Shown here: positions 21,394-60,669 of the stretch, piece after piece
How positions within the stretch are numbered: the first letter of the stretch is position 1
Layout of the letters: every line of letters begins with the position of its first letter
Virus record (IMG/VR): IMGVR_UViG_3300006141_000001
Reading direction: 5' to 3' (one strand)
DNA length: 64,000 bases
From: a virus
Position numbers and translations under genes: made by a program
Notes under the pieces: generated by a model
What the model saw: only the letters and a program-made list of their open reading frames with translations
Database searches by the model: none
What the model was told of the DNA's origin: nothing

Positions 21394-21424
21394 TACCCAT
21401 ATCCCTCCCTATCAATTTAGATAA

Positions 21425-21779: not shown

Positions 21780-21799
21780 AATAATAATTTTTTACTTTC

Positions 21800-22768: not shown

Positions 22769-22769
22769 A

Positions 22770-26680: not shown

Positions 26681-28500
26681 TTCATTGGCAGTTTCTGAAA
26701 ATTTTCTACAACTAAACTATCTTTTGGAGCTGTGGTGATGGCATTTGACAATCCATCATTCCGTATTTCTATTTTTTGTTTTATTTCTTCATTTGAATTA
26801 TACCTTCCACGCATAGCAGCACCAACACCATCTAATATAGCTGATTTATGTTCACAACAAATAGACTCATCTACATGTTGTTGAATAAAACTTTCTTGGA
26901 GTTTTTCATCGGTACATATATATGTATCATCATATTGAGCCTTATATAAATGCTCCGCTAATAACGCACAGCAATTTGTGATTATTCCATTCCCTGCTTG
27001 TTTATATAGATGTGTATTCGCAATACCTATTTCTGCAGCTTTATCACAATCTTCGAAAGTCAATCCCATGAGTTTATAACATTCTTTCGGAGTTAATTTA
27101 CGGATTCTAATTGTTTTATATAATCCGTTAATCACGGCATTTGTTGGTTGATTTCCAAATCCTTTATGATCTCTAGCAAGTAATGTACATGCAAAATCTA
27201 TTTCTTTCTCAGATTTAGTCCCTTGATTTGAAACTAAGACCGTAATATCTGGAATTTCAAGAACAGCCGTTCCTTCTTTTTTCCTATTGCTTGATCCCCG
27301 ATTTTCACTTGCAGTTATACAATTTGCATTTTCAATTATCTTAGGGTTGTTGGTTGTTTTATCTATTCCACATATGATTTTAGCATTATTACCATGTCCT
27401 GCCGTATGTGTTGGTGATATTCCTTCTGGTGATACGACTATTCCGTCTTGCGAGGAATTAATCTCTCCAACTTTCAAAATATTATTTTCTGTTAAGTACC
27501 ATCCAGTTTTTGCACCGCCTCCACCGGCCTCGGATTTTAACGTCCTGCTAATATTATCTGAATACACCCTATTTGCATCCCCGTTATAATTATTGATATA
27601 CCCTACTTGATGGAGTTCATTATCAATCCTGAAAATTTTTTCTAAATCAATAGTTTTTAGAAATTTTTTTACTTTTTCGTCTGGTAAATAATATTTTTCA
27701 TCAACTTCTTTTTCTAAAATATCTTTTAGGCGTATACCAGTATCGAATGGTTTAGGAAATACATATTTACCTTTATCAATATCTTTCCTAATAGATATTA
27801 CAAAAACCCTTTCTCTTGATTGCGGGACTCCACAATTTTTCCCGTTGATTATCGAGTAATAAGAATTAAACCCCAACCCATCTAATATTCCTAACAAATC
27901 ATTAAAATTATTGATAAATTTTTTACTCACAAGATTTTTGACATTTTCAAACATTATGTATTTTGGAAGGGAATTACTATCTTTTGCTTTCTTGAGCAAT
28001 CTTATGTTTTCCCATAGCAGGCTACTTCTTGTACCACTATCAGGATTTAACCCTTTCATTTTTCCGCAAACGCTGATATCCGTGCAAGGAAAAGAACATG
28101 TCCATAAATCTGCATATGGCAATTCTTCAATTTTACTTATATCCCCTAAATTATGCGTCAGTTTACAAGCCAACCAATATTTCTCCAGATCCTTCTTCTT
28201 TCTCTTCACTAATTTAAGCCAATCGGACTTCTTGCCTTTCTCAGGATCATAGCCCAAATTTATATCCATTAAGTGCTGAGCCATCTCTTCCTTGGACGGA
28301 TACCCCTTATATGAAATAACCATTCCATCCGTCAAGCCACAATGGATAGCAGCATATGATAACACAGATTCTTTGCTTATTTCTGATGTATTTACTACTT
28401 CAATGTCAAATACTCCTGAGTCCCTAAATCCTCTTGTTTGACATCCTATTCCTGAAAATAATTCGTTTACTGTTAATTTTATTTTCTTATTTTCTTCCAA
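26677..28500 (-). CDS. DNA (cytosine-5)-methyltransferase with repeated TRD-like segments. Possibly multispecific.
   Basis: Motif I FSGIGC, IV SFPCTDIS, VI MFENVKNL and VIII QSRERVFVI. Several target-recognition-domain-end-like stretches (ANRVYSDNISRTLKSEAGGGG, GIVVSPEGISPTHTAGHG). Motif IX is RKLTPKECYKLMGL and motif X is LYKQAGNGIITN, followed by a roughly 100-aa extension. Confidence 0.85.
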   Translation of the reverse strand: MEENKKIKLTVNELFSGIGCQTRGFRDSGVFDIEVVNTSEISKESVLSYAAIHCGLTDGMVISYKGYPSKEEMAQHLMDINLGYDPEKGKKSDWLKLVKRKKKDLEKYWLACKLTHNLGDISKIEELPYADLWTCSFPCTDISVCGKMKGLNPDSGTRSSLLWENIRLLKKAKDSNSLPKYIMFENVKNLVSKKFINNFNDLLGILDGLGFNSYYSIINGKNCGVPQSRERVFVISIRKDIDKGKYVFPKPFDTGIRLKDILEKEVDEKYYLPDEKVKKFLKTIDLEKIFRIDNELHQVGYINNYNGDANRVYSDNISRTLKSEAGGGGAKTGWYLTENNILKVGEINSSQDGIVVSPEGISPTHTAGHGNNAKIICGIDKTTNNPKIIENANCITASENRGSSNRKKEGTAVLEIPDITVLVSNQGTKSEKEIDFACTLLARDHKGFGNQPTNAVINGLYKTIRIRKLTPKECYKLMGLTFEDCDKAAEIGIANTHLYKQAGNGIITNCCALLAEHLYKAQYDDTYICTDEKLQESFIQQHVDESICCEHKSAILDGVGAAMRGRYNSNEEIKQKIEIRNDGLSNAITTAPKDSLVVENFQKLPMN

Positions 28501-35743: not shown

Positions 35744-36976
35744 TTAATCAGCTTGCTTTATATCGTTCCTTGCCTTTCCGAATGAGTGATAAATAACGTC
35801 AAATTGCTGTTTTAAGTCCTTTACCTCGAAGCTATCAACCGATTCAAATATTCCAGGAACTTCATTGCTGTGTGTTATGGAAAGAGAAATTTTCCAGCCT
35901 TTCCCATTAGAAAAATCTTTTTGTATTCTGTTTAATAATTCAGAAACATTCATTTTCCCATAACGCATTGTCCCTTGATGTTGGTTCGGTACATTTGTCA
36001 AATCTTCCATATCTGGATTGATTTCTTCTTTTCCGCACTCATTATCAATCCTGCCCGCCCCGTGCCTTGTTAGATATGGTCTTGTGACATAACAGACTTC
36101 AACATTTGAATCTGGAAACAATCTTAAAATCATTTCCGCCGGATTCTTTAATCCGGTGTTGCTTGGTGTCAAATGAGGAAAATATTCTTTATTATTCTGG
36201 TCTAACAGAAGTCCTTGCCCTCCCTCGAAAATAATATTCTGGTATTTTTCGAGTGCGTTTGTATCTCCGCAAACCGTTACATGACTTGCCGTAAATTCCA
36301 AATCTGAAAGAAACTGTTCAATCAACCCATCAGCATTTATTATTTCTTCCCATTCTCTACTTGACCGCATTTTCAATTCGTTAAAGCGTTTTGGCAGATA
36401 TGTATGTTTTATGGCTTTGATTGCATCTTTGTTCCGCTTGCCGCAATTCTCCAATAAAACCCATGCCGGATAACCATAGTTTTCCTCATAACGTTTAATG
36501 GTTTCAAAAATCCCCATGCCACAGCTTCCATGTCGCCCATTAGAACGGTTTTCTTCCAAAATCTGATTGATTATCATATCAAATGGTGTTGTTACTCTGC
36601 ACGAAGGATTCAAATATACTGTTGGTTCATATCCTAATTTCTGCAATTCTTCCCATTCTTGTCTGAATAAAATGGGATTTACAATAAACTCCTTTGATAA
36701 ATAAGTATCTGCTCCTGCAAAAACCCCGGAACCAAAATGGTGGAACACATGGTGCGACCCCTCCGCCGTGTCTACCGTATGCCCTCTTTGTGCGCCACCG
36801 TTATGGCACACTACAATACAGTTTTCACCCCGTAGGGCGGCTTGGTGGCAAAAATAATCTGCCACCAAGCCTTTTCCTTCATCACCAAAGTTTGCACCGA
36901 TTACAACTTTGATGTTTTTCTTTACCACGAAATCATCCCTCCTGCATTTTCTTCTGTTCTTGTTTCTGTCGCCCAC
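35744..36976 (-). CDS. adenylosuccinate-synthetase-family enzyme (divergent PurA/PurZ-like)
   Basis: VVIGANFGDEGKGLVAD (GDEGKG P-loop), NGGAQRGHTV, FEGGQGLLLD and YVTRPYLTRHGAGR. These align with the PurA motifs GDEGKGK, GGHNAGHT, FEGAQGTLLD and STRVGAGPF. Confidence 0.65.
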   Translation of the reverse strand: MGDRNKNRRKCRRDDFVVKKNIKVVIGANFGDEGKGLVADYFCHQAALRGENCIVVCHNGGAQRGHTVDTAEGSHHVFHHFGSGVFAGADTYLSKEFIVNPILFRQEWEELQKLGYEPTVYLNPSCRVTTPFDMIINQILEENRSNGRHGSCGMGIFETIKRYEENYGYPAWVLLENCGKRNKDAIKAIKHTYLPKRFNELKMRSSREWEEIINADGLIEQFLSDLEFTASHVTVCGDTNALEKYQNIIFEGGQGLLLDQNNKEYFPHLTPSNTGLKNPAEMILRLFPDSNVEVCYVTRPYLTRHGAGRIDNECGKEEINPDMEDLTNVPNQHQGTMRYGKMNVSELLNRIQKDFSNGKGWKISLSITHSNEVPGIFESVDSFEVKDLKQQFDVIYHSFGKARNDIKQAD

Positions 36977-41246: not shown

Positions 41247-42032
41247 TTAAGAAACAAGACCAACTCCAATGCCAGGATTAAAACTTGGCATAAGCTGTAA
41301 TTTGAATAAGTTTTTCTTATGCATTGTATCAATTTTCTTTTTTACTTCTTGGTCTTCAATTTCACCTGTACGGATGTATCTATCCAACACCTCATAAGTA
41401 AAGCCAAAATTCTCTTCATCTGTCTTTCCGCAAAGCCCATCAGATGGTGTTTTATCAATTAATTTGTCTGGTAACCCCAACACTCTCCCAATCTGTTTAA
41501 TTTCTGTAACCGTAAGGTTAGAAAGCGGACTAAAATCTCCAACTGAATCCCCATACCTCGTACTATATCCTATCCAATCCTCTGACAAATTACATGTATT
41601 TGCCACCCTACCATCCATACTTTGGCTTACAGCATATAAAGTTGCCATACGGATACGAGCAGGAAGATTAATTTCTGCCTGTTCTGTCAAACTATCATTA
41701 TCATCAAAAGCATTGAGAATATCATACTTTAAAGTATTCAAAGTATGTCCAATCGGAACTAAAGCAAAATTAATTCCAAGATACCTGCATAATAAATAAC
41801 TACAGTCAATATCTGTCTGAAGTCCATTTGGCATAAGAACGCCAAACACTCTATCTTTACCAAGTGCCTCTGCACATAGGGCAGCTACTACAGAACTATC
41901 TTTTCCACCTGAAATTCCAATTACTGCTTTACAACCCTTGCCATTATCCTCAAAGCATCCTTTAATCCAATTTACGCATTTATTCTTTACTTCTACTGCG
42001 TTAAAATCATCTATCATTGTCCTAACCTCCAA
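41247..42032 (-). CDS. nadE: NH3-dependent NAD+ synthetase
   Basis: PP-loop VIGISGGKDSSVVAAL. Length and architecture match NadE. Confidence 0.75.
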   Translation of the reverse strand: MEVRTMIDDFNAVEVKNKCVNWIKGCFEDNGKGCKAVIGISGGKDSSVVAALCAEALGKDRVFGVLMPNGLQTDIDCSYLLCRYLGINFALVPIGHTLNTLKYDILNAFDDNDSLTEQAEINLPARIRMATLYAVSQSMDGRVANTCNLSEDWIGYSTRYGDSVGDFSPLSNLTVTEIKQIGRVLGLPDKLIDKTPSDGLCGKTDEENFGFTYEVLDRYIRTGEIEDQEVKKKIDTMHKKNLFKLQLMPSFNPGIGVGLVS

Positions 42033-42228
42033 TCATCAAACATATAGATTTGCTTCTGGCAATATTGAAATATCCATTTTTTTCCTGTAGGCTTACAAGT
42101 TACAATGTCTAATTCAATGCATATAAAAAATATTGGGATTCAATTGTAATCAAATAATATTTATTCCAAATACAATTCTTCTCATTCGATAATAAAGCAC
42201 AATTCTTTGTCCATTACATCACCTCAAT

Positions 42229-42855
42229 TCAAAATCCACTTTTGCGATAAACGTTATCTGTGTTTTCCAGATACTCAAAAACACATTCTGGGACATAATC
42301 CTTAACCGAGCCTAACTGGTTATTGACATACGCCTCCCTTATCTGTGTCGATGATACTTCTTGATATGCCCCTTCAATATATCTAAAATTACCATTATAT
42401 TGCATTAATGATTCATGTAATTTCCCATTGTCATTATTCCTAGTAATCACCAAAAACCTATTATCCCTAACTACCTCTTCTGCTTTATACCATCTGTGGA
42501 TTTCACAAAGTTTGTCTGCCCCAATGCATATAATAGGATCCATTTTTCTATAATACTGGATTGTATTATATGTTTTGCCATCTACTGTCCCATTTATCTC
42601 AATGTTCGATACATGAAAACCGAATTTTTTCACTGCCTCATGTAATAGCAGGAATCTCTTATCTCCATCCAATACCATCCCATCTCCGTACTTTTTCCAG
42701 TCTTTTAAAAATTTATCATTAGATGGAACAAAAACAATATTAGCTGATGGATATACCATCTTGCAACAAATGCCCATATTTATATGGGCATTTGTCACAG
42801 GATTAAAAGCACCAAAAATCAATACTGACTTATTCATACTGCAATCTCCAGTCAA
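42229..42855 (-). CDS. nadD: nicotinate/nicotinamide mononucleotide adenylyltransferase (NadD/NMNAT family)
   Basis: LIFGAFNPVTNAH ((H/T)xGH motif), ICIGADKL, VSSTQIREAY (ISSTxIR) and VPECVFEYL. Confidence 0.65.
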   Translation of the reverse strand: MTGDCSMNKSVLIFGAFNPVTNAHINMGICCKMVYPSANIVFVPSNDKFLKDWKKYGDGMVLDGDKRFLLLHEAVKKFGFHVSNIEINGTVDGKTYNTIQYYRKMDPIICIGADKLCEIHRWYKAEEVVRDNRFLVITRNNDNGKLHESLMQYNGNFRYIEGAYQEVSSTQIREAYVNNQLGSVKDYVPECVFEYLENTDNVYRKSGF

Positions 42856-44035
42856 TACATCTCTGCAAATAGTTTACATAATCGAGGTTCTTGCAAATTC
42901 CTTTCCCAACATCATCTGAAATCTTTGCCACATCTTGTCCATTACATTTTGTAACTTTCATGACAATATTCAACGGCTCCACATCCGTATCATTAGAAAT
43001 ATAAGTCCCTATCCCAAACGCAATCTTTGCCCTTTCTTTAAAATAATGATAGATTTTATCTGCTTTTTCAAAGTTTAAACTGTCACTAAAAAGCAATGTC
43101 TTACTCCTTGGGTCTATCCCTAGATCTTTATAATGGTTAATTATTTTTTCTCCCCATTCATACGGACTGCCACTATCATGTCTCACACCACTGAATAAAG
43201 TGGCATAAGTAAGGTTAAAATCTTTCAAAAAACAATCTGTCCCAATGGTATCTGTAAGAGCCGTCCCATTAAGGATCCCATATTCTCTTACCCAAGCTTC
43301 CATCGCATACCAATTCGAATAAGCAGGATTATGCTTATGGTTCCCTTGGCCTACACACATAATAAACTCATGCGCTTGGGTTCCTGTGGGCATTAAATTA
43401 TACTTCATTGCCAAATAAACGTTAGAAGTCCCAACAAAAACTGAGCAGCAATATTTGATTCCAGATAACTTTTGCACTGCCATTTCTTGAGCTTCGGCAG
43501 AAAGCCTGCGCCTAAGTCCAAATTCACTAAAAGAAGAGAGATAATACCTTCCTTGATATATTCCTAGCCATTCCGCTTTCTCCTCCAATTTTTCTGTAAA
43601 CACTTCCATCAAATGTCTATAATTATGTGCCATTTTAAAATACACTTCATTTACTATTGCTAAAACCGGGATCTCATACATACTTGTGTTAAGCCATGTA
43701 CCTTTAGTTTCAATCACCAGACCACATTTTGAATTAACTGTTATATCAAAATCCTCAAAACGTGGCTGCCATAAACGCAAAAAATCCACATAATTTCCCT
43801 TAATCCAACGAATATTTTTTAAATATTGAAGCTCCTGTTCAGTAAACTTAAGGCTACAATACAATTTAATTTGGCGCTTAATCTCTTGAACCATTTCAGG
43901 CGTAAAAAATATATCTTTATTACGGCATTTAAACGTCCAAGTAGTTTTATAGTCCGAAAATTGATGAAGAATGACTTGCCCCATACTAAATTTGTATAAA
44001 TCATTCTCCAATAAACTATTAATAATCCTATCCAT
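42830..44035 (-). CDS. pncB: nicotinate phosphoribosyltransferase
   Basis: LLENDLYKFSMGQ (compare E. coli PncB LLDTDAYKLHMQQ), GTQAHE, GVRHDSGSPYEWGEK and LNIVMKVTKCNGQDVAKISD. Confidence 0.8.
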   Translation of the reverse strand: MDRIINSLLENDLYKFSMGQVILHQFSDYKTTWTFKCRNKDIFFTPEMVQEIKRQIKLYCSLKFTEQELQYLKNIRWIKGNYVDFLRLWQPRFEDFDITVNSKCGLVIETKGTWLNTSMYEIPVLAIVNEVYFKMAHNYRHLMEVFTEKLEEKAEWLGIYQGRYYLSSFSEFGLRRRLSAEAQEMAVQKLSGIKYCCSVFVGTSNVYLAMKYNLMPTGTQAHEFIMCVGQGNHKHNPAYSNWYAMEAWVREYGILNGTALTDTIGTDCFLKDFNLTYATLFSGVRHDSGSPYEWGEKIINHYKDLGIDPRSKTLLFSDSLNFEKADKIYHYFKERAKIAFGIGTYISNDTDVEPLNIVMKVTKCNGQDVAKISDDVGKGICKNLDYVNYLQRCIDWRLQYE

Positions 44036-44038
44036 ATT

Positions 44039-44581
44039 TCATTCTCCAACTTTCTTTAATCTATTAAAGGCGTTGTTGTCTTCATTCATTATTTTTAACA
44101 TCCATGTATTGATAAAATTTTTGTCATTTACATGCATAGCCATAGGTTTACTCATCCTATTTTTCCACCACATATATTCTTTTTCATATGTAAAATCCTT
44201 ACCGTAATATGCCCTTCCTGCCCCAAGAAAATCGCATAACATTTCTTTTTTATACTTCAATGGCATCTCAATGGCTATTCCGCCATCATCAAAATTATCC
44301 TGCCAGTACTCATAGTGATGCTTATTCCTCCCCTTATGATGCATCCACGCCTTTGACCAGCCATTCTCTTTTTTACAAGCATCAATAGGGCTGGAATTTC
44401 CTTGATAATATTTCACACCCTCCCAAAATTCTACAGAAGAAAATTTTGACATATCATGGAATAGTCCTTGTAAAGGGATTCCCATCTTCCAACAATAGTA
44501 AAATACCCAATATTTATGGACGCAGACCTTCTTAAAATGCTTAAAAATATTCACAATTTTAATCATCCTAATTCTTCCCAC
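44039..44581 (-). CDS. HD-like metal-dependent hydrolase of unknown function, embedded in the NAD module
   Basis: Ordered H / HD / H..H / D pattern: CVHKYW, LFHDMSKF, WMHHKGRNKHHYEYW and DDGGIAIE. Confidence 0.4.
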   Translation of the reverse strand: MGRIRMIKIVNIFKHFKKVCVHKYWVFYYCWKMGIPLQGLFHDMSKFSSVEFWEGVKYYQGNSSPIDACKKENGWSKAWMHHKGRNKHHYEYWQDNFDDGGIAIEMPLKYKKEMLCDFLGAGRAYYGKDFTYEKEYMWWKNRMSKPMAMHVNDKNFINTWMLKIMNEDNNAFNRLKKVGE

Positions 44582-45117
44582 ACCGTTTTTTTATTTACAT
44601 GGATTTGACACATTTTCATAGTCAGCAATGCTGCTTTATGCGCATCCGGAGAAGTGCCTGCACAACAATCCACATCTACAGAAATTTCAATATCTGGGAA
44701 ATTTGCCTTCAACAGCAAAGCGTTTGATACAACACATATGTCCGTACATAATCCAACAATTTCAATTTCTAACCTCTCTTTTCTATCCAAGATCCTTCTT
44801 ATTTCATTTATAAGGCGGGTTGATCCAAACGTTCTTTTCTCAATAATTTTATAATCCTTTCCCACTAATACATCACGGACATCCTTATTCAAAACCCATC
44901 CGTTAGTCATTCTAATACAATGGGCAACTGGTAAATGCTTCCCTTCAAAAGTTTCTAAATAATTGTCATCATGTGTATCCAATGTTGCAAAAATCTTCCC
45001 ATCAAACCCTTTTATTTTATCTACTACATTTCCAACAATGTCTTTTGCTTCCTTTGTTCCGAGTGAGCCGTCAATAAAATCATTTTGCATATCAACCACA
45101 ACCAAAATACTACTCAT
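44563..45117 (-). CDS. pncA: isochorismatase-fold nicotinamidase (PncA-like)
   Basis: N-terminal LVVVDMQNDF signature and Cys in VGLCTDICV. Confidence 0.65.
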   Translation of the reverse strand: MSSILVVVDMQNDFIDGSLGTKEAKDIVGNVVDKIKGFDGKIFATLDTHDDNYLETFEGKHLPVAHCIRMTNGWVLNKDVRDVLVGKDYKIIEKRTFGSTRLINEIRRILDRKERLEIEIVGLCTDICVVSNALLLKANFPDIEISVDVDCCAGTSPDAHKAALLTMKMCQIHVNKKTVWEELG

Positions 45118-45200: not shown

Positions 45201-46220
45201 TTAATCTTCCTCATATGGGCATTCTGGCAATGCTCCGCTCAATATTGCATTTCCACAAGTGATGCGCCCCAAGTCCTCATACTCGCTTGCGATAAACACA
45301 AGCACATCAAATCCGGCTTTCTTCAAATCCTCTTCAATGTGTCGGTATGGATACATGGTTGTATAATCTCCGCTTGTTTCAATACCGTTTTTAAGGGCGG
45401 TATGTGTTTTGTGCATAGGTGTCAACTTGACAAGGAATTTTTCGGGATTGAATAAATCTCTCATCTTCTCTGCATTGACCTCATAATCAGCAACCGCAAA
45501 ATTCAATGTAATTTTTCTTCCCTTTGGCATTTCAAGGCTTCTTCCAATATTTGAAATTTCCTGCAATGTCAGAGAATTTCCGCTAAACATATCCTCTCTT
45601 TCGCTGTCAGAAGTGGAATTGATGGAGAATTGCAATCCGGCATCCCCCGAAAAATCTTTGTTCTTAATCTCCATCCACACTTCAAGATAATCAGCTAATT
45701 TTGTGTTGTTCTTCGGTAACATGGTGGAAACAACGGGATGAATAAGGCTGTCACCGATATATGGTTTTAATTCTTCTCTCATATTCTTTGTAAACTCCAA
45801 AACCGCCCAATTCCATGTAGGCTCTCCCATTCTCGCATAATGCACATTCAAGCGGTTTGTATGAGTGATTTCTGGGTGCAATGATAAGCCGGTTACAATC
45901 TGACTTTTCAAATCATCGTATGTAGCGTTTATGCCTTTTCCGACTTTCGGCACATCACAGAATTTGCAGTTCATGGAGCAACCGTACTGTGTGCTGATTG
46001 TGATTACCCACTTTTCGGAAAGCGGTAACATTTGCTGATGTTCTACATGGTCTATCTCCCTTGTCAAGCCCATGAAATCAGCCTTTAAGTTCGCTTCTTT
46101 CCCATAGTCTCCGATTGACAGACATTCAAGTTTTCCCTTGTCACCCTCAACAATCATAATGTTTCCAGTTGGTACTTTTATATTTCTTAAAATTTTTATT
46201 TCCAAATCCTCCAATCTCAT
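45201..46220 (-). CDS. radical SAM enzyme of the RlmN/Cfr-like family (RNA C-methylating type)
   Basis: ISTQYGCSMNCKFCDV (CxxxCxxC; compare RlmN SSQVGCALECKFCST), ARMGEP (MGMGEP) and C-terminal RITCGNAIL (compare DIDAACGQL). Confidence 0.6.
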   Translation of the reverse strand: MRLEDLEIKILRNIKVPTGNIMIVEGDKGKLECLSIGDYGKEANLKADFMGLTREIDHVEHQQMLPLSEKWVITISTQYGCSMNCKFCDVPKVGKGINATYDDLKSQIVTGLSLHPEITHTNRLNVHYARMGEPTWNWAVLEFTKNMREELKPYIGDSLIHPVVSTMLPKNNTKLADYLEVWMEIKNKDFSGDAGLQFSINSTSDSEREDMFSGNSLTLQEISNIGRSLEMPKGRKITLNFAVADYEVNAEKMRDLFNPEKFLVKLTPMHKTHTALKNGIETSGDYTTMYPYRHIEEDLKKAGFDVLVFIASEYEDLGRITCGNAILSGALPECPYEED

Positions 46221-47306: not shown

Positions 47307-49385
47307 TTAAAATTTAATTTTAATAATCCTTTCGCTTGCGCCTTTAACTTTTACAAAGATATTATTTCTTTTCGTCATACTGAAACCAACCCCAGAAAGT
47401 TGTTCCTCTGAATCTTCAACATGACACTTAGATCCAAGACCCTCGAAAACCTTTTTATGTTCCAACAACTCATTTTTTAGATATTCGTTATAAAACGAAT
47501 TGGGCTGTTCTGGGTTTTTGCATCCGTTCAAAAAGAAAAATATATGTCTGTGTCCTATGCCCTCTTGTTCATCAAAATAATTTGGGCTATAACTAATAAC
47601 CGATACTGGCACAAACTGATTCGTCTTTACGCCCCAAACCTCGCGAACAGACATATTTGACGGTAACAGTTCTTTGATTGAGAAATTCTCTCCATCAAAT
47701 GTCACTTCTGCAACAGGTACATTCTCATTCTGCCGCAATTCTTTCTGGTAGTCAAAACGATAAATACTCCCATCAAACTCAATTTCTGCACGGAAACCAT
47801 TTTTACCACCACGATTAGTGAACTGATGGACAAAGAAAAGATACTTCCCTTTTTGCATTGTGTTTTTAGTTGCCCATGTGATATTTTCGACTGCTGGAAT
47901 ATTTCTGTCTGGATTAATTATGTCAATATCAAGTTCGCCCCCTGTACGACTTCTCTTATGATTGTACATGATTTCCTCTCCGCTTGGCTCTTTGCAGTGT
48001 GCATCAAGATCATTCTTATCCCAATCCCCCATATCATTCCACTGGATAGAGAACCGCAAAACACCATCTACTTTACCGCCTGCCGACTTTACATTCTTTC
48101 GAATATCGCTATCCGTAATATTGCCTGAATATGCCCATGAAAACCCGTTGTTCCATTTGAACATTGTCGGTGCGTCCATATTTTTCGGGGCAATCAGTGA
48201 TACCATATTTGAAGAATGCCTGTTCTCAAGGAAAACCTCAATCTCCTTTGCCGTAGGAAGTACATTCTTCACAAAATCTTCTGCCGATACTTCCTCAACC
48301 TTTGAGAATTTCTTCGGGTTGACTGCAATATCCTTTTCCATGCTTGCGAATACATCATCTGCATCTGATATGCGCCGCTGTGCATCCTTATTTGAAAAAA
48401 GAATATTGTTGATAGAAATATCATCAAGCGTGGCAAATCTACGCCCTAATGACGACATATAACCCAATTCTTCAATCTTTTTCTTTGCATCCTCCAACAT
48501 CTTTTTTGTAAAAATTGCTTTTGGACGCTTATAGTTTGCAGGAGCCACAATCTGTTCATATTTCTTAACTGCCAAATCCAACTCCATGCCATCACTGATA
48601 TTAACAAGCAAAGTTCCGATGCTATGGTTCCTTATCCTGCCGATAACAACCCCTGCTGCAATTGATTTTTCCCATGCAAAATTTTCTTTTTCTTTTGTTT
48701 CTACTAATTTATCATAGGCTTTCTTATATTTCAAAAACTCTGTTAAAACTGCCTTCCATTCCTCACCCTTATAAAGAGAATTCTGTGAAATCAGTTCTAG
48801 GATAGTCATAATGCTTTCTTCCGTGATTTCATCTAGTGACCGTTTAAATACGTTCCTTGTGTCACGAAATGTCCCTTTAATGTCTCCTGCAGAACGTCTC
48901 TTATCAAAAACAAATTTACTAGGTAATTCCAAATAAAAATGCTCGTAGGTATTGACTTGTCCATTTTCGAGATATTCATAATTCTCTTCTGTACCAATTT
49001 TTCTCTCGTGGCTTACATATACATCTGTTACCATATGATTCTTTACATAGGCTGATAATGCATCTACTACTGGCTGGAATACATCATCTCCCAACTGTAA
49101 ATCCCAAATGGTATATACCACACTATCTTTAATCACAACAGCATTGCCGATAGTTTTAATGAAATGTCTACAACAGTTACAATCATATTCCCTGCGCTCT
49201 CTATAAATTTCATTTGTTCCTGCTGGGAAACTTTCAAGGTACAGATTCCATAATTCATCCTTGTCTACATTAACTTCAAACAAATGTGTTACACTCTTTG
49301 TCATTTCATTGAAATGTTCAATTAACCTGTCCCTCATCTCTGTAAAATTCATAACATAACCTCCTTTTATATGTTGTAAAATCAT
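47307..49385 (-). CDS. large hypothetical protein (692 aa)
   Basis: ORF track; no recognised motif. Confidence 0.5.
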   Translation of the reverse strand: MILQHIKGGYVMNFTEMRDRLIEHFNEMTKSVTHLFEVNVDKDELWNLYLESFPAGTNEIYRERREYDCNCCRHFIKTIGNAVVIKDSVVYTIWDLQLGDDVFQPVVDALSAYVKNHMVTDVYVSHERKIGTEENYEYLENGQVNTYEHFYLELPSKFVFDKRRSAGDIKGTFRDTRNVFKRSLDEITEESIMTILELISQNSLYKGEEWKAVLTEFLKYKKAYDKLVETKEKENFAWEKSIAAGVVIGRIRNHSIGTLLVNISDGMELDLAVKKYEQIVAPANYKRPKAIFTKKMLEDAKKKIEELGYMSSLGRRFATLDDISINNILFSNKDAQRRISDADDVFASMEKDIAVNPKKFSKVEEVSAEDFVKNVLPTAKEIEVFLENRHSSNMVSLIAPKNMDAPTMFKWNNGFSWAYSGNITDSDIRKNVKSAGGKVDGVLRFSIQWNDMGDWDKNDLDAHCKEPSGEEIMYNHKRSRTGGELDIDIINPDRNIPAVENITWATKNTMQKGKYLFFVHQFTNRGGKNGFRAEIEFDGSIYRFDYQKELRQNENVPVAEVTFDGENFSIKELLPSNMSVREVWGVKTNQFVPVSVISYSPNYFDEQEGIGHRHIFFFLNGCKNPEQPNSFYNEYLKNELLEHKKVFEGLGSKCHVEDSEEQLSGVGFSMTKRNNIFVKVKGASERIIKIKF

Positions 49386-49416
49386 TCTATAATACCATTA
49401 TCGAGACTCCATACAC

Positions 49417-50268
49417 TTATTCTTCCAAAGCTTTTATAAGCTGCTCAATATATTCCCTCCCTTCTCCCTTAAAGACAGGAATGTCTTTATCAATAATCCA
49501 AGAACTGATGTTTTGACCCAAATTACGCAACATACATCTCTCTGTCACACTAACCTTCTCTAACATAATTTCATTTTTAACTACACACGTGCCTCTTTTT
49601 TGGTATGTAGGAAAATCATTCCAATTTATTCCTTTTTGGATCATTAACATGTCCTGGATATCATTATTGGTTTTATTCTGTAATTCTTTATGGCTAAAAT
49701 TAGCACGTCCCACCATTTGGACGCTATTTCTGGACGCATCTAACTGCCTCCAATATATATAATTTGTAACTTCCTCTTTGGGAATATTGAATACTCTAGC
49801 ATCAAACATTGCCCCCTTATCCTTTGCTTCATAATATTTTTTTACTAAATACCTATATTCGTGTTCTTCGATATTTTTTGGTTCGAAATTATCAAACTCA
49901 AAAACGTTTTGTTCGAAAATGCGATTAAAAGCTAAAGTCGCCATACTTGCAATAATACTACACATTTTTTGAACTTCATAATCAAACCATGAAGAAGAAT
50001 TAAGCCTTTTATAATCTACCAATACTAAAGAAATCTCATCTGACTGAGTATACCCAAGAACACATCCCTGGACATTCTCGCAAAGATATCTTGTAGTTTT
50101 CTGTATTGTATCAATCAGGACATCATCAAACGGCCTTCTAAAATTTCTGGCAAACGTATGGAACGCCCTCCCATCAACCCTGCATATGACTGGACAACGC
50201 CTCATAAGTTTTGTTTTTGGAATCCGCTCATAAAAAGTTTTCATCCTATCGCCAAGATTATCTCTCAT
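49417..50268 (-). CDS. Thg1-like protein (tRNA 3'-5' nucleotidyltransferase, TLP)
   Basis: N-terminal GDRMKTFYER...VICRVDGRAFHTF matches the Thg1-family signature (KFEYV...RVDGxxFHxF). Length is Thg1-like. Confidence 0.65.
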   Translation of the reverse strand: MRDNLGDRMKTFYERIPKTKLMRRCPVICRVDGRAFHTFARNFRRPFDDVLIDTIQKTTRYLCENVQGCVLGYTQSDEISLVLVDYKRLNSSSWFDYEVQKMCSIIASMATLAFNRIFEQNVFEFDNFEPKNIEEHEYRYLVKKYYEAKDKGAMFDARVFNIPKEEVTNYIYWRQLDASRNSVQMVGRANFSHKELQNKTNNDIQDMLMIQKGINWNDFPTYQKRGTCVVKNEIMLEKVSVTERCMLRNLGQNISSWIIDKDIPVFKGEGREYIEQLIKALEE

Positions 50269-50361
50269 TTTTTCTCCTTTATTTAATTGAATTTATTGGA
50301 ACCTATTTGGGATATAACGGGAATTGCTATTCCTAATTCTTGTTCATCTTCATTATTTAAT

Positions 50362-50612
50362 CAGAAGGAAGGAATAGCATAACCGTCATTTAAAACTTTA
50401 TTGGAAAGAATAATCCTTATAATATTTTTATGCGTTCTATAATTTAGAAGGAAAGGATTATATAGCCAAAAGATATGCCAAGCAGAAATTATGCCGGCTA
50501 TTTCAACCAAAATTTTAGAAGGAAGCCTACATATAGCTGCTTATATTTAATAGGAAACTGCAAATTCTGATACTGTAATTTTTTGAAAACAGAAGGAAGA
50601 ATTTGCATAGCC
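50362..50612. repeat. cluster of four imperfect direct repeats AGAAGGAAG-N9-10-ATAGCC
   Basis: Copies at about 50362, 50444, 50516 and 50590, in the 354-nt intergenic gap downstream of the 705-aa gene. Confidence 0.7.
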
Positions 50613-50622
50613 TGTTAATTCA

Positions 50623-52740
50623 TTACAAATATTCGCCTACAAAAACATCTATATCAAATGGGGTGACGCCAGAATCAATATCAAATATGATATCTGCATC
50701 TTCTTTATTCTCCACCTTTAAACCCCTTGCTCTTATGTGAAGGTCAATCAAATCATACAAATTGGGCTTGCTAATATTAACCATGCTATAACAAGTCGCT
50801 GCCACTCCAGACAGGTTGCTCTCAACATTATTTCCACCGTAATTTCCATGACATCCATCTATCGTTAAATTCATATCACACCAAATCATTTCCCTGTTTA
50901 CACAGTCAAATATCACAGGAATACAAACCATGCTTTGAGATGCTAAATCCATTCTTTGTTCCACTGTTTTTGGTTCATATATCTCCCCTGAATTGACATC
51001 TTCTCTTCCCATCCATCCAAACATTGCATGTGGCAAATCGGAAAATTTCTGACCGGTGTAGCTATACACCTGATACACCACATACCTTGCTCCATATCTG
51101 ATGACAGACTCTATATCCACATCCAAAAATTCTGTTACGCCCTCGCCGTTTACAGAGCCGCCATTAACAATATCCCCCGAATGGCACGAATTGTATTTTT
51201 CAGAATGCAAATTGGTGTACGATATATGTTCCATATAATTCCATTTTTCGTCAAATATCGCTGCCGACAAATCCAAATCTACTATATTCTCCCAATGATA
51301 GTCTCCTTCTTCCATATTTGTCCACCAAACAAATCCCCTTAATGCTTTTATGTTCTTATCTATTGGAAGCCTAGAACCTCTTGTGATGGCCTTCAATGCC
51401 TTACTTGCACTTCTTTGGCTAAATGGGACAACATACCTTTTGAATTCTTCTGATAAATACACATTCCCAAGAAAATCTTTATTCTTATAATTTTCAATTA
51501 ATGCATTTTCACAGATTTTCACAATAGCATTACAGTATTTCTCATCAATATCTGGCAAAGTATTATCAATGCAATGGCATCTTGCCAGGCTTCCTTTTGG
51601 GAAAAATACTCTTGATTCCAGTTTTCCATTCCTATGGATAAAATGTTCCCTAACCTGTAATAAAACAGGGGTTGAAACACTAACTGCCACATTTTTAAAT
51701 GTATTAACTATAGAATCTTTGTCATTTGAACTTCTTAGAAGATGATCCAGCTTTCGGGCAAGCTCACCAGGTCTCTTTCCGAGAAGAGTAAGTGCCTCTT
51801 TGTAATGTTCTGTTTCCATCGCTTTCGTAACTTTCCCAGAAAACGTCTCTATTTTTATCCCATTGCGGAGTTTATTAAATGCAGTGATTACTTTTCCAAA
51901 CTGTGCTTCACTATATTCAGATGGATGAATCCTTTCACCAATACGGATCCATTTATTTTTATATCTGAACATATCCTCTTCAATCTGCCCACAGCCTTGC
52001 AAAAGTTCTAGGAGCATCCTTCTCTCTTTTCTTTTAAAACTCCTAAATTTTGTATTGGCAGCTAAACTAATATCACCATCAGACATTGCTGTAATTAACC
52101 TCAGTACATCCGTTGCTGTCTTAAAATATTTCTGGATTTCTTTTGCTGTCGCCAAAGGGCTACTCTCTAAATATAACTTCCCAATAAGTGCCGCATTTTC
52201 TTTTAATGGGATGTCATCTGGGAATTTAACACACATGTTTTTAAAAATCCATTCCAAATCTTCTTTGTCTGTCTGGGAAATGGAAGTTTTCGACTGGCAC
52301 AAATGATAAAAAATTTCATGCAAATCTTCTATGGAACCAATGTTAATGACCTTTATTTTTGTTTCGTCAAATAAGGGAAGCCGTTCTTTTTTCTCTTCTT
52401 TTGGATACCATGTGCCAAATGACCAATAATGAAGGATGGCATTTACAAACAATTCCATTTCATCAGCTTCCATCACCGATTCTGGAAAATTGGGATACAT
52501 CGGTTTATATACCACATCTGCTCCTACCATATTCTTCAAAATCGGCACTAATTCCAAGTAAAACTCCTGCAATTCTTCTTTATTCAGAGTCTTAAGAATT
52601 TCATATAATTCTTTCGAGAAAGTATACCCTAGTGACTCAATGTTCCTCATTATTGTGAGTGCATATTTGCTGTCGGTATTTTCCTCATTTCCTTTTTGGA
52701 CAATCACTTTATTTTTTCTTCGTAATAGAATCTCATTCAT
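50623..52740 (-). CDS. large hypothetical protein (705 aa)
   Basis: ORF track; no recognised motif. Confidence 0.5.
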   Translation of the reverse strand: MNEILLRRKNKVIVQKGNEENTDSKYALTIMRNIESLGYTFSKELYEILKTLNKEELQEFYLELVPILKNMVGADVVYKPMYPNFPESVMEADEMELFVNAILHYWSFGTWYPKEEKKERLPLFDETKIKVINIGSIEDLHEIFYHLCQSKTSISQTDKEDLEWIFKNMCVKFPDDIPLKENAALIGKLYLESSPLATAKEIQKYFKTATDVLRLITAMSDGDISLAANTKFRSFKRKERRMLLELLQGCGQIEEDMFRYKNKWIRIGERIHPSEYSEAQFGKVITAFNKLRNGIKIETFSGKVTKAMETEHYKEALTLLGKRPGELARKLDHLLRSSNDKDSIVNTFKNVAVSVSTPVLLQVREHFIHRNGKLESRVFFPKGSLARCHCIDNTLPDIDEKYCNAIVKICENALIENYKNKDFLGNVYLSEEFKRYVVPFSQRSASKALKAITRGSRLPIDKNIKALRGFVWWTNMEEGDYHWENIVDLDLSAAIFDEKWNYMEHISYTNLHSEKYNSCHSGDIVNGGSVNGEGVTEFLDVDIESVIRYGARYVVYQVYSYTGQKFSDLPHAMFGWMGREDVNSGEIYEPKTVEQRMDLASQSMVCIPVIFDCVNREMIWCDMNLTIDGCHGNYGGNNVESNLSGVAATCYSMVNISKPNLYDLIDLHIRARGLKVENKEDADIIFDIDSGVTPFDIDVFVGEYL

Positions 52741-52802
52741 GTTTATTCTCCTTTTTTAATGAAATTGGCGATAGTAAAACATATAATTTACAATATCTAA
52801 AA

Positions 52803-53135
52803 TAGAAGGAACTATCGCCATAGCATTGTTTTTGCGGTAATAATAAAACCTATAATTTTTTATTGGTCGCCATCTGAGCTATATCCCCAAGTTGGGAATA
52901 ATCGGACTCGAACCGATGACCCATAAACCCCTAGAATCAGAAGGAAGGTTCTATATAGCCGCAGGTTTCGTTTTTTGTAGGAGATTAAAAGTTCTAAATA
53001 TTAGTAAATTAAGTCTCTTTGTTTTGTAGAAGGAAGAACTTTTTAGCCTACATTTTATACTTAATTAGGAAATCCGCAAAACTAAAACCTTATTCATCAT
53101 TTATAGTAAAAAGAAGGAAGTCTTGCTATAGCCTA
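52803..53135. repeat. second cluster of four AGAAGGAAG-N9-10-ATAGCC-type repeats
   Basis: Copies at about 52803, 52937, 53028 and 53111, upstream of the 705-aa gene. Confidence 0.7.
52861..52935 (-). other. permuted or fragmentary tRNA-like element (3' half followed by 5' half)
   Basis: Minus strand: GGGTCATCGGTTCGAGTCCGATTATTCCCA (T-arm ATCGG/TTCGAGT/CCGAT plus an acceptor 3' strand), then ACTT, then GGGGATATAGCTCAGATGG (acceptor 5' strand plus the start of a D-arm). The acceptor strands can pair. Confidence 0.35.
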
Positions 53136-53177
53136 ATATTGTATACTAATTTTTATTACAAGGCATGTCTGGTACAT

Positions 53178-53624
53178 TTAATGATTAGGGACATGCCCCT
53201 TATCAGTAATCCAGTGTACAAGAACGGTAATCCTACCTTCTTGTTCCAACTGTTCAAATTCTACTACATCTTCTATATCCCAATTGACAGGATACACTCC
53301 GCAATATTCTACAATACAATCTAATGCATCTGTTTCAATCCAAATCTTATCCAAATTCCATGTACCACTGACCGTATCTACATAACGGTAATTTACATGA
53401 TTCTTACTGAGAATTTCTTTAATTCTTTCAATCCTATGGTCTTTACAGACATTTAATCTCCCTAAATTTTGTGGAATTGTAATATAAAATACACATTTTG
53501 TAATTTCTTGCTTTTTTCTTGCATCAATCCATTCTTGGATTGTTTCTGCTCTTTCCACTCTTTCTTTTAACTCCATATTATTCCTCTGAACCCCTTTTTC
53601 TATATTAGCTACTTCATCTTTCAC
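53178..53624 (-). CDS. hypothetical protein
   Basis: ORF track. Confidence 0.45.
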   Translation of the reverse strand: MKDEVANIEKGVQRNNMELKERVERAETIQEWIDARKKQEITKCVFYITIPQNLGRLNVCKDHRIERIKEILSKNHVNYRYVDTVSGTWNLDKIWIETDALDCIVEYCGVYPVNWDIEDVVEFEQLEQEGRITVLVHWITDKGHVPNH

Positions 53625-53887
53625 GTCTCCCTATTTAATGCTTCCATAACCTCATGGATATCCGTTACATATCCACTCCAAACGGTCTTATCAGCATTCT
53701 CTCCAGCATATATCTCCATCTTTCCGTCAAACCATCTTCCTACATCCATCCCATTGTATTTCTGCATTGATGGAAGTAAGAACTCCACATTATAATAATA
53801 AAAATTATCTGTGTCCATGATATCCCATTCTTGCCACTTGAAAATATCTACTCCACAAAATTGTTCTATATAAGTTTCACTGCTCAT
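53621..53887 (-). CDS. hypothetical protein
   Basis: ORF track. Confidence 0.4.
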   Translation of the reverse strand: MSSETYIEQFCGVDIFKWQEWDIMDTDNFYYYNVEFLLPSMQKYNGMDVGRWFDGKMEIYAGENADKTVWSGYVTDIHEVMEALNRET

Positions 53888-53916: not shown

Positions 53917-54035
53917 TTATTTTTTTGTTTTACTTAGCCTAAAATGCCTAACTGAACTGAACTTAACATAACATAACCCAACTAAACGTAACATAACTCA
54001 ACTCAAAATGCCTAACTTAACTAAACACAACTGAA
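53917..54035. repeat. about 110-nt leader repeat, copy 1 (pentanucleotide-rich AACTn/TAACn)
   Basis: Shares the 52-nt core cttaacataacataacccaactaaacgtaacataactcaactcaaaatgccta with 55362..55475. Confidence 0.75.
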
Positions 54036-54088
54036 CTTAGCCCAGCAGAACACAACTCAACATAACTTAACTCATAATACCTAAACTA

Positions 54089-57314: not shown

Positions 57315-58715
57315 TTAAGCAGCATTTTCTTGTATCTTACAATATTTAATAAAATCTTCTTTCATATGAAGATAATTCTTCTTCTGGTCTTTAAAATATG
57401 TATTATTACTTTTCGCATATTGTTCCATCCATGTATCCAAATTTTTATCTGCTTGATGCGAGTATACAACCATTGCTAATAATGATGGACGGTTTTCATC
57501 TTGCAATAATTTTGAATCACATTTTATTGTCCTATCTTCAAGTTCATCTAAGACATCGTTGTAATAATCAATATCATCTCTGATTGTTTTCTTATCAATC
57601 CCTGTATTTTCTATTAAAAATTCATTAATAGAAATAGTATCCTTTCCATCTTTTTCGTCACAAGGTTCTGTGTCAATCCCTAAAAATTCTCTCATCATTC
57701 CTTCCAACATGTCTAATTTAGCAATAATAACCGTCTTATCCTTTGTTGATTTATCTTTATCTATTTCATCAAATAAAAGATTATTTTTATTCTTTCTACA
57801 ATTCCTTAAATTATTTTTAAACTCTAACAGGAACTGCTCAAACTTTATATCTTCTATTCCATAACGAGTGAATCTGTCAAACAGTGTTAAAAATATAAAA
57901 GAATCTTTACTATTAAAAATAATTTTTGTTTCTTCAGAAATAATTTCTTCCAATCTATGTAAGTTGTTTTCAACTTTTTCAAAATCCTCATCTTTTGCAC
58001 AGTTATTCAAATATTTACATGCTAATTTTGCATTTTTCTTCCAATCATCTAAATAATCAGAACACATGATAGTTTCAGCAATTGTTCTTTCAATAACGCC
58101 TTTTATTTTTTCTATTTCCTTAAAATCGCTTTTTTCTATAAAAAATTTACTATTTGTTATTCTACGAACATTTGGTGCAAAATTATATAAATATGTAAAT
58201 GCTTTCTGATTACTATTCATTGAAATATGGTTGTTATATATTTTTACATATTTAGACAACCTTTTCCTGTCGCAGTTTTCATGAATGACAGTCTCTATTT
58301 GGTATTCATCGAATTTTTTCTTTAACTCATCTGGAAGTTTATCATATGTTTTATTTTTTATATCAAACGTCCCATCCTCCCAATGGATTTTTCCGTCTTC
58401 ACTTATTATTTTCTTCTTATAAACTATCTTAGAATCATCTATCGTAGATGTGATTTTATGGTTTCCATATCTAAATTTATCTAATGCCTTTGTCCTACAT
58501 CCGCCATCTACAATATGTAATTGTGAATCATTTTCTTCTCCAAGTATAATTGGCGGGATATAATCATCTGTCAAAACCGTATAAATTAATTCATTGATCT
58601 GCTCATTCTTCCACGCAAAATCCCTCTGTGTGTCTGCATCATTACATATATCCCCATCTTTTGTCTTTGCCAAATACATATCTAATGTATAAGTCTGTTT
58701 TCTTGGTCTCGCCAT
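57315..58715 (-). CDS. DUF262 (ParB/Srx-fold, GmrSD or DndB-like N-domain) protein
   Basis: TQRDFAW (QR..VW motif) and IVDGGCRTKAL (DGQQR-like). Confidence 0.55.
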   Translation of the reverse strand: MARPRKQTYTLDMYLAKTKDGDICNDADTQRDFAWKNEQINELIYTVLTDDYIPPIILGEENDSQLHIVDGGCRTKALDKFRYGNHKITSTIDDSKIVYKKKIISEDGKIHWEDGTFDIKNKTYDKLPDELKKKFDEYQIETVIHENCDRKRLSKYVKIYNNHISMNSNQKAFTYLYNFAPNVRRITNSKFFIEKSDFKEIEKIKGVIERTIAETIMCSDYLDDWKKNAKLACKYLNNCAKDEDFEKVENNLHRLEEIISEETKIIFNSKDSFIFLTLFDRFTRYGIEDIKFEQFLLEFKNNLRNCRKNKNNLLFDEIDKDKSTKDKTVIIAKLDMLEGMMREFLGIDTEPCDEKDGKDTISINEFLIENTGIDKKTIRDDIDYYNDVLDELEDRTIKCDSKLLQDENRPSLLAMVVYSHQADKNLDTWMEQYAKSNNTYFKDQKKNYLHMKEDFIKYCKIQENAA

Positions 58716-60588: not shown

Positions 60589-60669
60589 ACGTAGGTTCCT
60601 TTGGGATTCGAACCAAAACTTATCGTTTATGAGGCGATTGGTCTGACCGTTGAACTAGGAGCCTACGCA
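60589..60669 (-). tRNA. tRNA-like element (CAT anticodon-loop-like). Non-canonical and possibly degenerate.
   Basis: Minus strand: acceptor GCGTAGG / CCTACGT (7 bp, one G-U), T-loop signature TTTGG-TTCGAAT-CCCAA, and a CTCATAA loop flanked by ATCG/CGAT. The D-arm and the T-stem to acceptor junction do not fit a standard cloverleaf. Confidence 0.3.

Follow-up and report, generated by a model that had tools for sequence, protein, structure and literature searches.

Thg1 occurs sporadically in jumbo phages, where it is regarded as a 5'-end restoration enzyme (PMC7824862), and residues E12, R28, K43, S74, R131 and R147 of the Thg1-like protein (TLP) from Bacillus thuringiensis (BtTLP) have been assigned to nucleotide binding and activation (Hyde et al., PMC3701042). 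Ro60/Rsr proteins and their Y RNAs constitute a second described system. [quoted passage not shown] In a 64,000-nucleotide stretch of viral DNA (IMG/VR record IMGVR_UViG_3300006141_000001; hereafter the window), a TLP gene is located next to the gene of a 705-aa protein, which is flanked on both sides by structured RNA units, one of them with a tRNA-like module in its loop. The analysis favors, with a probability of approximately 0.6, an intact TLP that acts as a stand-alone tRNA repair enzyme and lies adjacent to a Ro60-like ribonucleoprotein (RNP) module.

The TLP gene (49417..50268, minus strand) is an ATG-to-stop open reading frame (ORF) that encodes 283 aa and starts with MRDNLGDRMKTFYER...RVDGRAFHTF. 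An earlier note on this DNA had proposed a Thg1-like identity from the RVDGRAFHTF signature and the length of 283 aa, and this identity is confirmed by three comparisons. The Pfam Thg1 model (PF04446) matches residues 7-163 with 99 bits (cutoff 29.2) and is covered from position 2 to position 130 of 130. PHROG 4717, annotated 'tRNA-His guanylyltransferase', matches with an E-value of 1.8e-89, and the BtTLP structure (PDB 4KGK) aligns in two blocks over nearly the whole protein (E=4.8e-60). The Thg1 C-terminal domain PF14413 reaches 22.7 bits, under its cutoff of 26.3; residues 152-278 of the TLP align with residues 125-237 of BtTLP at 100 bits. The earlier note had also correctly placed the gene between two large ORFs, which encode proteins of 692 aa (47307-49385) and 705 aa (50623..52740), with all three genes on the minus strand.

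The palm-domain carboxylates, on whose presence the earlier note had made the assignment depend along with a Thg1-family match, are found as D32, D77 and E78, equivalent to D30, D75 and E76 of BtTLP and to D29, D76 and E77 of hTHG1. The TLP also retains E14, R30, H37, S76, R158 and R174 and the TLP-type residue M185. D32, D77, E78, E14, R30, S76, R158, R174 and Met185 are invariant in the window TLP and 13 related phage TLPs. The segment RQLDASRNSVQMVG of the window TLP aligns with RQQDASKNSISMVA of BtTLP, and M185 corresponds to BtTLP M158; eukaryotic Thg1 has an Asn residue at this position. The eukaryotic HINNLYN motif is absent from the window TLP, as seen in the alignment with BtTLP and related phage TLPs. 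A clade-specific and variable insert of ~30 aa occupies residues 121-151. Judged by its sequence, the 283-aa ORF is a bona fide bacterial-type TLP with intact catalytic residues.

By homology, the TLP would function as a template-dependent 3'-5' polymerase on tRNA acceptor stems. The enzyme would activate an RNA 5' end with ATP or GTP and would then extend it in the 3'-to-5' direction, with the 3' strand of the tRNA acceptor stem serving as the template, and 5'-truncated tRNAs would thereby be rebuilt during infection. Rebuilding of 5'-truncated tRNA acceptor stems appears to be the most likely role of the TLP, which would serve as a free-standing accessory enzyme of tRNA maintenance and complement a separate cluster of ligase, Pnkp-like and RlaP genes. 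The earlier note had linked such repair to tRNA damage by host tRNA-targeting immunity, a putative role that is derived from homology. A tblastn search located TLPs in 162 deposited phage records (Bacillus, Prevotella Lak, Caulobacter, Mycobacterium, Erwinia and other phages), most of which are already named tRNA-His guanylyltransferase, and at least 583 IMG/VR stretches contain a matching TLP. Because phage TLPs are so widely annotated, the window TLP is itself ordinary and adds little. No biochemical study of a phage TLP was found in the literature searched. A megablast search of the 47-53 kb region against deposited phages gave no match and, hence, no close DNA relative, and PADLOC returned no defence-system match for the TLP, the 705-aa protein or the 692-aa protein.

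The 705-aa protein (50623..52740, minus strand) is the putative protein partner of the flanking RNAs. It is composed of a helical N-terminal region (residues ~1-440), a TerD β-sandwich (residues ~460-625) and a short helical C-terminal part. An AlphaFold (AF2) model was generated from a 96-sequence alignment, with a mean predicted local distance difference test (pLDDT) score of 92.6 and a predicted template modelling (pTM) score of 0.90. The helical N-terminal region of the model superposes on Ro60 over ~300 residues. A Foldseek search against viral models identified a phage 'TROVE domain-containing protein' (E=5.6e-5), and the corresponding search against the PDB matched the TerD domain only. 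Both the β-sandwich fold and the sequence signature of TerD are observed in the 705-aa family. In the predicted structure, the 705-aa protein thus appears to be Ro60/TROVE-like in fold, with TerD in the place where Ro60 has its vWA domain; it is not filed here as a TROVE member.

Sequence comparisons place the 705-aa protein apart from the annotated TROVE family. The protein has no Pfam match even at E-values up to 10, and none of 52 diverse family members matches Pfam TROVE (PF05731), whereas TerD is matched by 11 of the same 52. A profile search of the family against the PDB did not find Ro60, and a C-terminal vWA domain with a metal ion-dependent adhesion site (MIDAS) was not found in the 705-aa protein, whose second domain is TerD. 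NCBIfam NF041916 (MXAN_6230/SCO0854 family RING domain-containing protein) matches residues 294-676 with an E-value of 4.5e-129, but the score of 432 bits is under the cutoff of 600, and the best stretch starts at position 383 of the 842-position model, with the N-terminal part of the model uncovered. No paper on the SCO0854/MXAN_6230 family or on a protein combining TROVE and TerD was found in the literature searched. More than 3,000 relatives of the 705-aa protein are present in public data, a few of them named 'TerD family protein' by their sources, and the family is encoded in 12 phage records.

The earlier note had described the 705-aa gene as bracketed by repeat arrays, and all eight minus-strand copies of TTCCTTCT in the window indeed fall in the two intergenic regions around this gene. 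The copies belong to larger RNA units, each of which is built from an outer 4-6-bp helix with GG/CC at its end, an internal loop (5' CUAU and 3' RAUUU, as in CUAU/AAUUU), a 9-bp inner helix and a loop starting with UCCUUCU. The sequence of the 9-bp helix varies from copy to copy, and TTCCTTCT opens the loop that this helix closes. A covariance model (R1) of the units was run on the whole window with filters off and produced eight matches, each within one of the two intergenic regions next to the 705-aa gene.

All eight units are on the minus strand. On the upstream side, UP1 (53064..53137) is matched by R1 with 62 bits (E=9e-13) and has a supporting fold, and UP2 (52976..53052) is matched with 64.4 bits and a fold z-score of -2.7. 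UP3 (52834..52962) is a 129-nt unit with the tRNA-like module in its loop and gives a partial R1 match of 17 bits. UP4 (52756..52829; 64.3 bits), whose stem sequence is better conserved in close relatives than that of any other unit, stops immediately before the Shine-Dalgarno sequence of the 705-aa gene. On the downstream side are DN1 (50549..50616; 60.6 bits, fold z=-5.1), DN2 (50480..50542; 43.2 bits), DN3 (50399..50471; 63.5 bits) and DN4 (50315..50388; 63.7 bits, fold z=-4.4). DN4 ends 46 nt upstream of the TLP start codon, with no terminator predicted in between. Promoter-like and terminator-like sites occur at chance level from 49300 to 53700, consistent with a single transcript that would be processed into small RNAs. 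The TLP gene, immediately downstream of the module, is probably on the same transcript as the module.

The pairing of the units was analyzed in related loci, which were gathered with an alignment of the 705-aa family as the query. Across these loci, a perfect 9/9 complementary arm is present at 221 of 407 unselected TCCTTCT sites, compared with 9 of 407 in a shuffled control. The arms at TCCTTCT sites comprise 166 distinct sequences, and the flanking GGCUAU and RAUUUCC elements are conserved. In an alignment of 47 units, 92% of the cells are paired, and the covariation score is 0.90, compared with 0.13-0.19 for slid controls. The 98.8% pairing of the inner helix is partly due to construction because the 47 units were chosen for perfect pairing of that helix. 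In the same 47 units, the outer helix, which was outside the selection criteria, has its four inner pairs 85-100% paired with many double changes. At positions of the inner helix that deviate from Watson-Crick pairing, G.U (79) exceeds A.C (29; p=1.6e-6). Selection therefore acts on the structure as RNA of the coding strand.

The association between the units and the 705-aa family extends far beyond the window. R1 yielded 320 matches over 79 loci, all on the protein-coding strand and beside a 705-aa homolog, and R1 units were found beside every clade of 705-aa homologs tested. Matches are located upstream of the homologs in the cultured Xanthomonas phages Xoo-sp13 and XacN1, at a protein identity of only ~27%; those in Rhodococcus phage Weasels2 are weak. 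Covariation and strand of the RNA are thus shown, and its co-occurrence with the protein holds across divergent phages. No Rfam 15 family reaches its gathering score over the RNA units. CRISPR-like or ToxI-like arrays, iterons and promoter or terminator repeats were considered for the units and rejected, since the stems differ while pairing is kept, G.U exceeds A.C and promoters and terminators are not in excess. The unit RNAs would be stable and bound by the 705-aa protein.

The homologs of the 705-aa protein are encoded on large phage contigs (100-480 kb), mostly inside phage tRNA arrays of the same strand and often just past tRNA-Gln or tRNA-Lys. The Weasels2 homolog is likewise part of a tRNA array, and an RtcB gene follows 3 kb further downstream. 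The module class is represented in phages of Firmicutes, Proteobacteria and Actinobacteria, and a JGI contig of 243 kb encodes an identical 705-aa protein. The host range is suggested by close relatives, which were binned with Lachnospiraceae and in one case reside in a Coprococcus aceti isolate genome; the window phage is large and probably infects Lachnospiraceae. Two further RNAs were observed in the related loci, which carry L numbers: a 'skipping-rope' RNA (RF02924) at L013:3478-3548, just upstream of tRNA-Gln and the first unit (48.3 bits; gathering score 36.7), and an ARAGORN tmRNA call at L043:1463-1862, inside the tRNA array upstream of the module. In the window, an imperfect tandem repeat of ~140 bp (53949-54087) with TAACT-like pentamers and apparent periods of 5, 15 and 20 occupies an intergenic gap ~800 bp upstream of the RNA units. 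A 466-aa protein (57315-58715, minus strand) contains a GmrSD_N domain and matches PADLOC NsnA (E=1.1e-8); it is a nuclease of a type known from defence and exclusion systems, here carried by a phage, and similar genes are found upstream of the module in L004 and L005.

In the loop of UP3, a T-arm (AUCGG-UUCGAGU-CCGAU; 52901-52917) is followed by the 3' strand of an acceptor stem (UAUUCCC; 52894-52900), five nucleotides of closing loop, the complementary 5' acceptor strand (GGGGAUA; 52882-52888), the dinucleotide UA and finally the D-arm region (52865-52879), all of them encoded on the minus strand. UP3 thereby combines a closed 7-bp acceptor stem with a T-arm, in the permuted order known from YrlA. 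The top permissive Rfam match of the UP3 region is likewise YrlA (RF02553), over the full model, with 19.8 bits and an E-value of 0.8. At least one unit with a fuller tRNA-like module is present in 28 of 69 related loci. The fuller versions have a complete D-arm (GCUC-AGUCGGUA-GAGC) and an anticodon-stem-like helix, and they match YrlA with 36-39 bits (E=4e-5 to 2e-4). Their acceptor stems change in a compensatory manner between loci, as in CACCCUC/GAGGGUG, CAACUAC/GUAGUUG and CGCCUCG/CGAGGCG. The tRNA-like module also changes position, occupying UP3 in the window and DN1 in L002 and L006.

Chen et al. cautioned that two adjacent tRNAs can imitate YrlA (PMC4201824). This caution is inapplicable to UP3 because the unit's own helix encloses the segment and a short loop closes the acceptor stem. 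A permuted tRNA gene, a decayed tRNA pair and an attP remnant were each rejected as the identity of the tRNA-like piece: a covarying stem encloses this piece, its acceptor stem is closed, and other loci have it with compensatory changes. The earlier note had speculated that the TLP gene and its large neighbors could be a functional unit, for example an RNA-binding scaffold analogous to Ro60/Rsr. A TROVE/vWA search of the 692-aa and 705-aa proteins, which that note had called for, disclosed no sequence signature in either protein. For the 705-aa protein, the analogy nonetheless gains support from the Ro60/TROVE-like model, the covarying Y-RNA-like units and the YrlA-like mimic.

In the proposed mechanism, the module would form an RNP, in which the conserved helix and internal loop would provide the protein-binding site. 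The variable stems and the cargo of the loop, including the tRNA mimic, would diversify what the RNP recruits or imitates. The 705-aa protein and its 4+4 RNAs may accordingly represent a new and widespread class of phage RNP that parallels Ro60-Y RNA, with interchangeable RNAs on a shared platform (GGCUAU...AAUUUCC and the UCCUUCU loop) and with tRNA mimics on some of the RNAs, which could recruit tRNA enzymes, for example the TLP, or act as decoys for tRNA-targeting host nucleases; the case for this class is judged to be evenly balanced. The module is apparently undescribed, with no Rfam 15 family at gathering score and no description in the literature available.

Several observations weigh against a stand-alone repair TLP beside a Ro60-like module. 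The D-stem of UP3 is degenerate, with three of four pairs. The YrlA scores of 19.8-39 bits are far under the gathering score of 69 bits. The published Rsr-binding motif GNCGAAN0-1G (PMC4201824) is absent from the RNA units, whose conserved elements are instead 5' GGCUAU, the UCCUUCU loop and 3' RAUUUCC (AAUUUCC). In the TLP, the Lys residue of the activation step (BtTLP K43) is replaced by Arg45, a position that is K or R across the clade. The window also contains no tRNA-His, and its single tRNA is a tRNA-Met (60591-60664); therefore, no candidate for a phage-encoded substrate is visible locally.

The alternative that survives best, although it is unlikely, treats the eight units as cis-acting elements of the transcript rather than as stable trans-acting Y-like RNAs. 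The units could then be autoregulatory operators bound by the 705-aa protein, 'punctuation' for RNase processing in tRNA operons, or mRNA stabilizers. In favor of this reading, UP4 abuts the Shine-Dalgarno sequence of the 705-aa gene and has an unusually conserved stem sequence. In many loci, the units are on the same strand as the neighboring tRNA arrays, and no unit-specific promoters or terminators were detected. However, four units are downstream of the 705-aa gene and therefore cannot control the translation of that gene. The divergent multiple copies with conserved single-stranded motifs and optional tRNA-like domains resemble sets of Y RNAs and not operators. Moreover, known bacterial Y RNAs are also cut from operon transcripts (PMC4201824), as the unit RNAs would be if they acted in trans.

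A somewhat less probable alternative makes the TLP a component of the module. In Deinococcus, a Y RNA tethers Ro60 to PNPase. By analogy, the tRNA-like domain of a Y-like RNA might recruit the TLP, an enzyme that recognizes tRNA acceptor stems, to the Ro60-like protein and thereby create a dedicated RNA-repair machine; in a variant of this model, RNase P would cleave the tRNA-like RNA, whose 5' end the TLP might then maintain. The TLP gene is directly beside the module without tRNA genes in between in two lineages, on opposite sides (downstream in the window and upstream in loci of the L007 type), and it is within 4 kb of the module in four more lineages. The lack of a predicted terminator between DN4 and the TLP gene is compatible with such a tether, as are the closed 7-bp acceptor stem and T-arm of UP3, given that the M. 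smegmatis YrlA with its 7-bp stem is cut by RNase P and gets CCA (PMC4201824).

The tether model is attractive, but its comparative support comes from a minority of lineages, and neighborhood counts in both directions oppose it. Of 76 viral loci with the module, 17 have a TLP gene no more than 4 kb away; among dereplicated lineages, this holds for 6 of 48, and the other 42 have none within that distance. In four of the six linked lineages, tRNA genes separate the TLP gene and the module, and a common tRNA island is therefore enough to explain their proximity. The reciprocal counts were centered on the 80 closest TLP loci and, for neighboring gene families, on 53 dereplicated TLP loci. The module is present in only four of the 80, all on contigs already seen in the module-centered set, and is absent from the other 76. 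A tRNA gene of any kind lies within 6 kb in 10 of the 80 loci, and neighboring gene families recur in at most 7 of the 53 dereplicated loci. Most TLP-bearing phage groups, such as the Bacillus phages, are missing from the 12 phage records with the 705-aa family. The forward and reciprocal counts therefore identify the TLP as a free-standing, mobile accessory gene. The adjacency of the TLP and the module in the window is suggestive but is not a conserved partnership; cooperation between the two is possible and is required by neither.

The 692-aa protein, encoded on the other side of the TLP gene, belongs to PHROG 1735. This family comprises 557 phage records, mostly hypothetical proteins, and includes members from Vi1-like Salmonella phages, Klebsiella phages and Bacillus phage TsarBomba (62% identity). 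A few PHROG 1735 records are labelled 'putative DNA-directed RNA polymerase'. The family is found near the module only in the window, L034 and L069, and no similarity was found that would make the 692-aa and 705-aa proteins paralogs. A conserved operon of the TLP, 705-aa and 692-aa genes was rejected on the neighborhood counts. The functional unit of these three genes that the earlier note had suggested is thus not upheld, with a TLP near the module in 6 of 48 lineages, the module at 4 of 80 TLP loci and an unrelated 692-aa protein.

An improbable alternative, on a par with the tether model, concerns the substrate of the TLP. Its main job might be to add or restore G-1 on tRNA-His of the phage or the host rather than to repair 5' ends in general. 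G-1 addition is the founding activity of the Thg1 family, and public annotation names the phage proteins 'tRNA-His guanylyltransferase'. Related phages carry tRNA-His genes, some of them near a TLP gene (L027 and L033). Position -1 is encoded as G in all four phage tRNA-His genes examined (L027:3575-3649, L033:8507-8580, L043:3257-3330 and L031:2829-2902), two of which have C73 and two A73. With A73, bacterial RNase P is expected to remove an encoded G-1, so the two A73 genes count in favor of G-1 restoration. Against it, the enzyme features are of the TLP type and not of the Thg1 type (Met185 for Asn; no HINNLYN), tRNA-His is within 6 kb in none of the 80 closest TLP loci, and the window lacks a tRNA-His gene. 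The encoded G-1 of these tRNA-His genes and the TLP-type character of the enzyme make G-1 addition less likely as the main role; as a necessity, it was rejected since G-1 is genome-encoded in those genes. Three of the four tRNA-His genes have U.U mismatches at acceptor positions 4:69 and 5:68, which is unusual for an acceptor stem. These mismatches could be relevant to templated 5' editing by TLPs.

In the least credible explanation, neither the repeats nor the tRNA-like piece would have a function, and they would represent dimeric or decayed tRNA genes, the remnant of an attP site, or repeats that matter as DNA (iterons or recombination sites, for example). The evidence in hand argues strongly against this explanation: although the module is often inside tRNA arrays, the T-arm and then the D-arm of adjacent tRNAs can mimic YrlA (Chen et al., PMC4201824), and neither ARAGORN nor Rfam at gathering threshold makes a call there, the tRNA-like segment is enclosed by the covarying 9-bp helix of its unit, the acceptor strands are complementary with a joining loop of 4-6 nt and compensatory changes between loci, the units covary massively, G.U exceeds A.C on the coding strand, and the link to one protein family persists from 24% to 80% identity.

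All genes of the window are on the minus strand, and the guanine-cytosine (GC) content is 30-41%, with local values of up to 0.37-0.41 between 30 and 40 kb. The RNA-repair cluster is located ~27 kb from the TLP gene, within 14933-23795 on the minus strand, and encodes an RlaP nucleotidyltransferase (22770-23795), an RNA ligase (PF09414; 18781-19797), a Pnkp-like protein with kinase and HD phosphatase domains (17874-18788), an SPFH/Band-7 protein (15732-16658) and a vWA-TerF-like protein (14933-15691). The cluster also holds a 322-aa protein of unknown function. A radical SAM protein labelled 'RlmN-like' (45201-46220, minus strand) shows a weak likeness to RlmN/Cfr, with 33 bits versus a cutoff of 290. 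The companion RNA enzymes listed in the earlier note are thus present in the case of the ligase and the Pnkp-like protein, with RlaP in addition, whereas the RlmN-like assignment is weakly supported.

A cluster for salvage and synthesis of nicotinamide adenine dinucleotide (NAD; 41247-45117, minus strand) contains genes of NAD synthase (41247-42032), nicotinate phosphoribosyltransferase (42830-44035), a DUF5662 protein (44039-44581) and an isochorismatase/nicotinamidase-like protein (44563-45117) and could counter NAD-depleting host defences. A 410-aa homolog of adenylosuccinate synthetase is encoded at 35744-36976 on the minus strand (PF00709, E=1.6e-33). In phages, a homolog of this kind can be PurZ, the enzyme behind 2-aminoadenine (Z) genomes. 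The minus strand further encodes two DNA methyltransferases (26677-28500 and 6408-7169), of which one is a C5-cytosine and the other a D12-class N6-adenine enzyme, and a PAPS-reductase-domain protein is encoded at 9115-10161.

What Ro60 and Y RNAs do, and why bacterial Y RNAs have a tRNA-like domain, are open questions on which the module bears. In the module, a second protein family that sequence searches do not recognize as TROVE appears to have RNA partners of its own, which covary, occur in multiple copies and include YrlA-like mimics. If true, the family would serve as an independent system for comparison, comprising more than 3,000 proteins and RNA units in the hundreds, and it would give a plausible role to a large group of 'hypothetical' or 'TerD family' proteins and to long gene-free stretches in phage tRNA islands. 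The presence of the module in cultured phages (Xanthomonas XacN1 and Xoo-sp13; Rhodococcus Weasels2) makes it experimentally approachable, and a phage TLP that is naturally beside a tRNA-mimic RNA would be a convenient entry for biochemical study.

Among known systems, the TLP compares most directly with BtTLP (4KGK/4KGM), with which it shares the same three carboxylates, the Arg, Ser and His residues that bind nucleotides and the activation-site Met (PMC3701042). BtTLP lacks the insert of ~30 aa (residues 121-151) and has K43 where the window TLP has Arg45, and the window TLP is phage-encoded. Annotated phage TLPs (PHROG 4717; Fusobacterium phage Fnu1 and Bacillus phages BCP78, Bcp1 and TsarBomba) belong to the same family, with 40-55% identity over the full length. 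Unlike them, the window TLP adjoins a Ro60-like module, an arrangement seen in few lineages. In relation to TerD proteins of the tellurite-resistance (Ter) systems (PDB 2KXT and 2QZ7), the TerD portion of the 705-aa protein is one domain that is accompanied by a large helical region and dedicated RNAs, and other Ter genes are not adjacent to the 705-aa gene.

The closest parallel for the module is Ro60/Rsr with its Y RNAs, especially bacterial and phage Rsr with the tRNA-like YrlA (PMC4201824; Ro60 of phage phiLo, PMC12135203). The 705-aa protein is predicted to resemble Ro60/Rsr in its helical N-terminal region followed by a second, probably metal-binding, domain, but it lacks the TROVE sequence signature and has TerD in place of vWA/MIDAS. 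RNA-repair or tRNA genes are often near in both systems. In each, several small RNAs are encoded alongside the protein, and their terminal stem is combined with a large loop and a conserved internal loop; one RNA per locus often carries a permuted tRNA mimic. The RNAs of the module differ in using the elements GGCUAU, UCCUUCU and AAUUUCC rather than GNCGAAN0-1G, and they are present in up to eight copies on both sides of the module gene.

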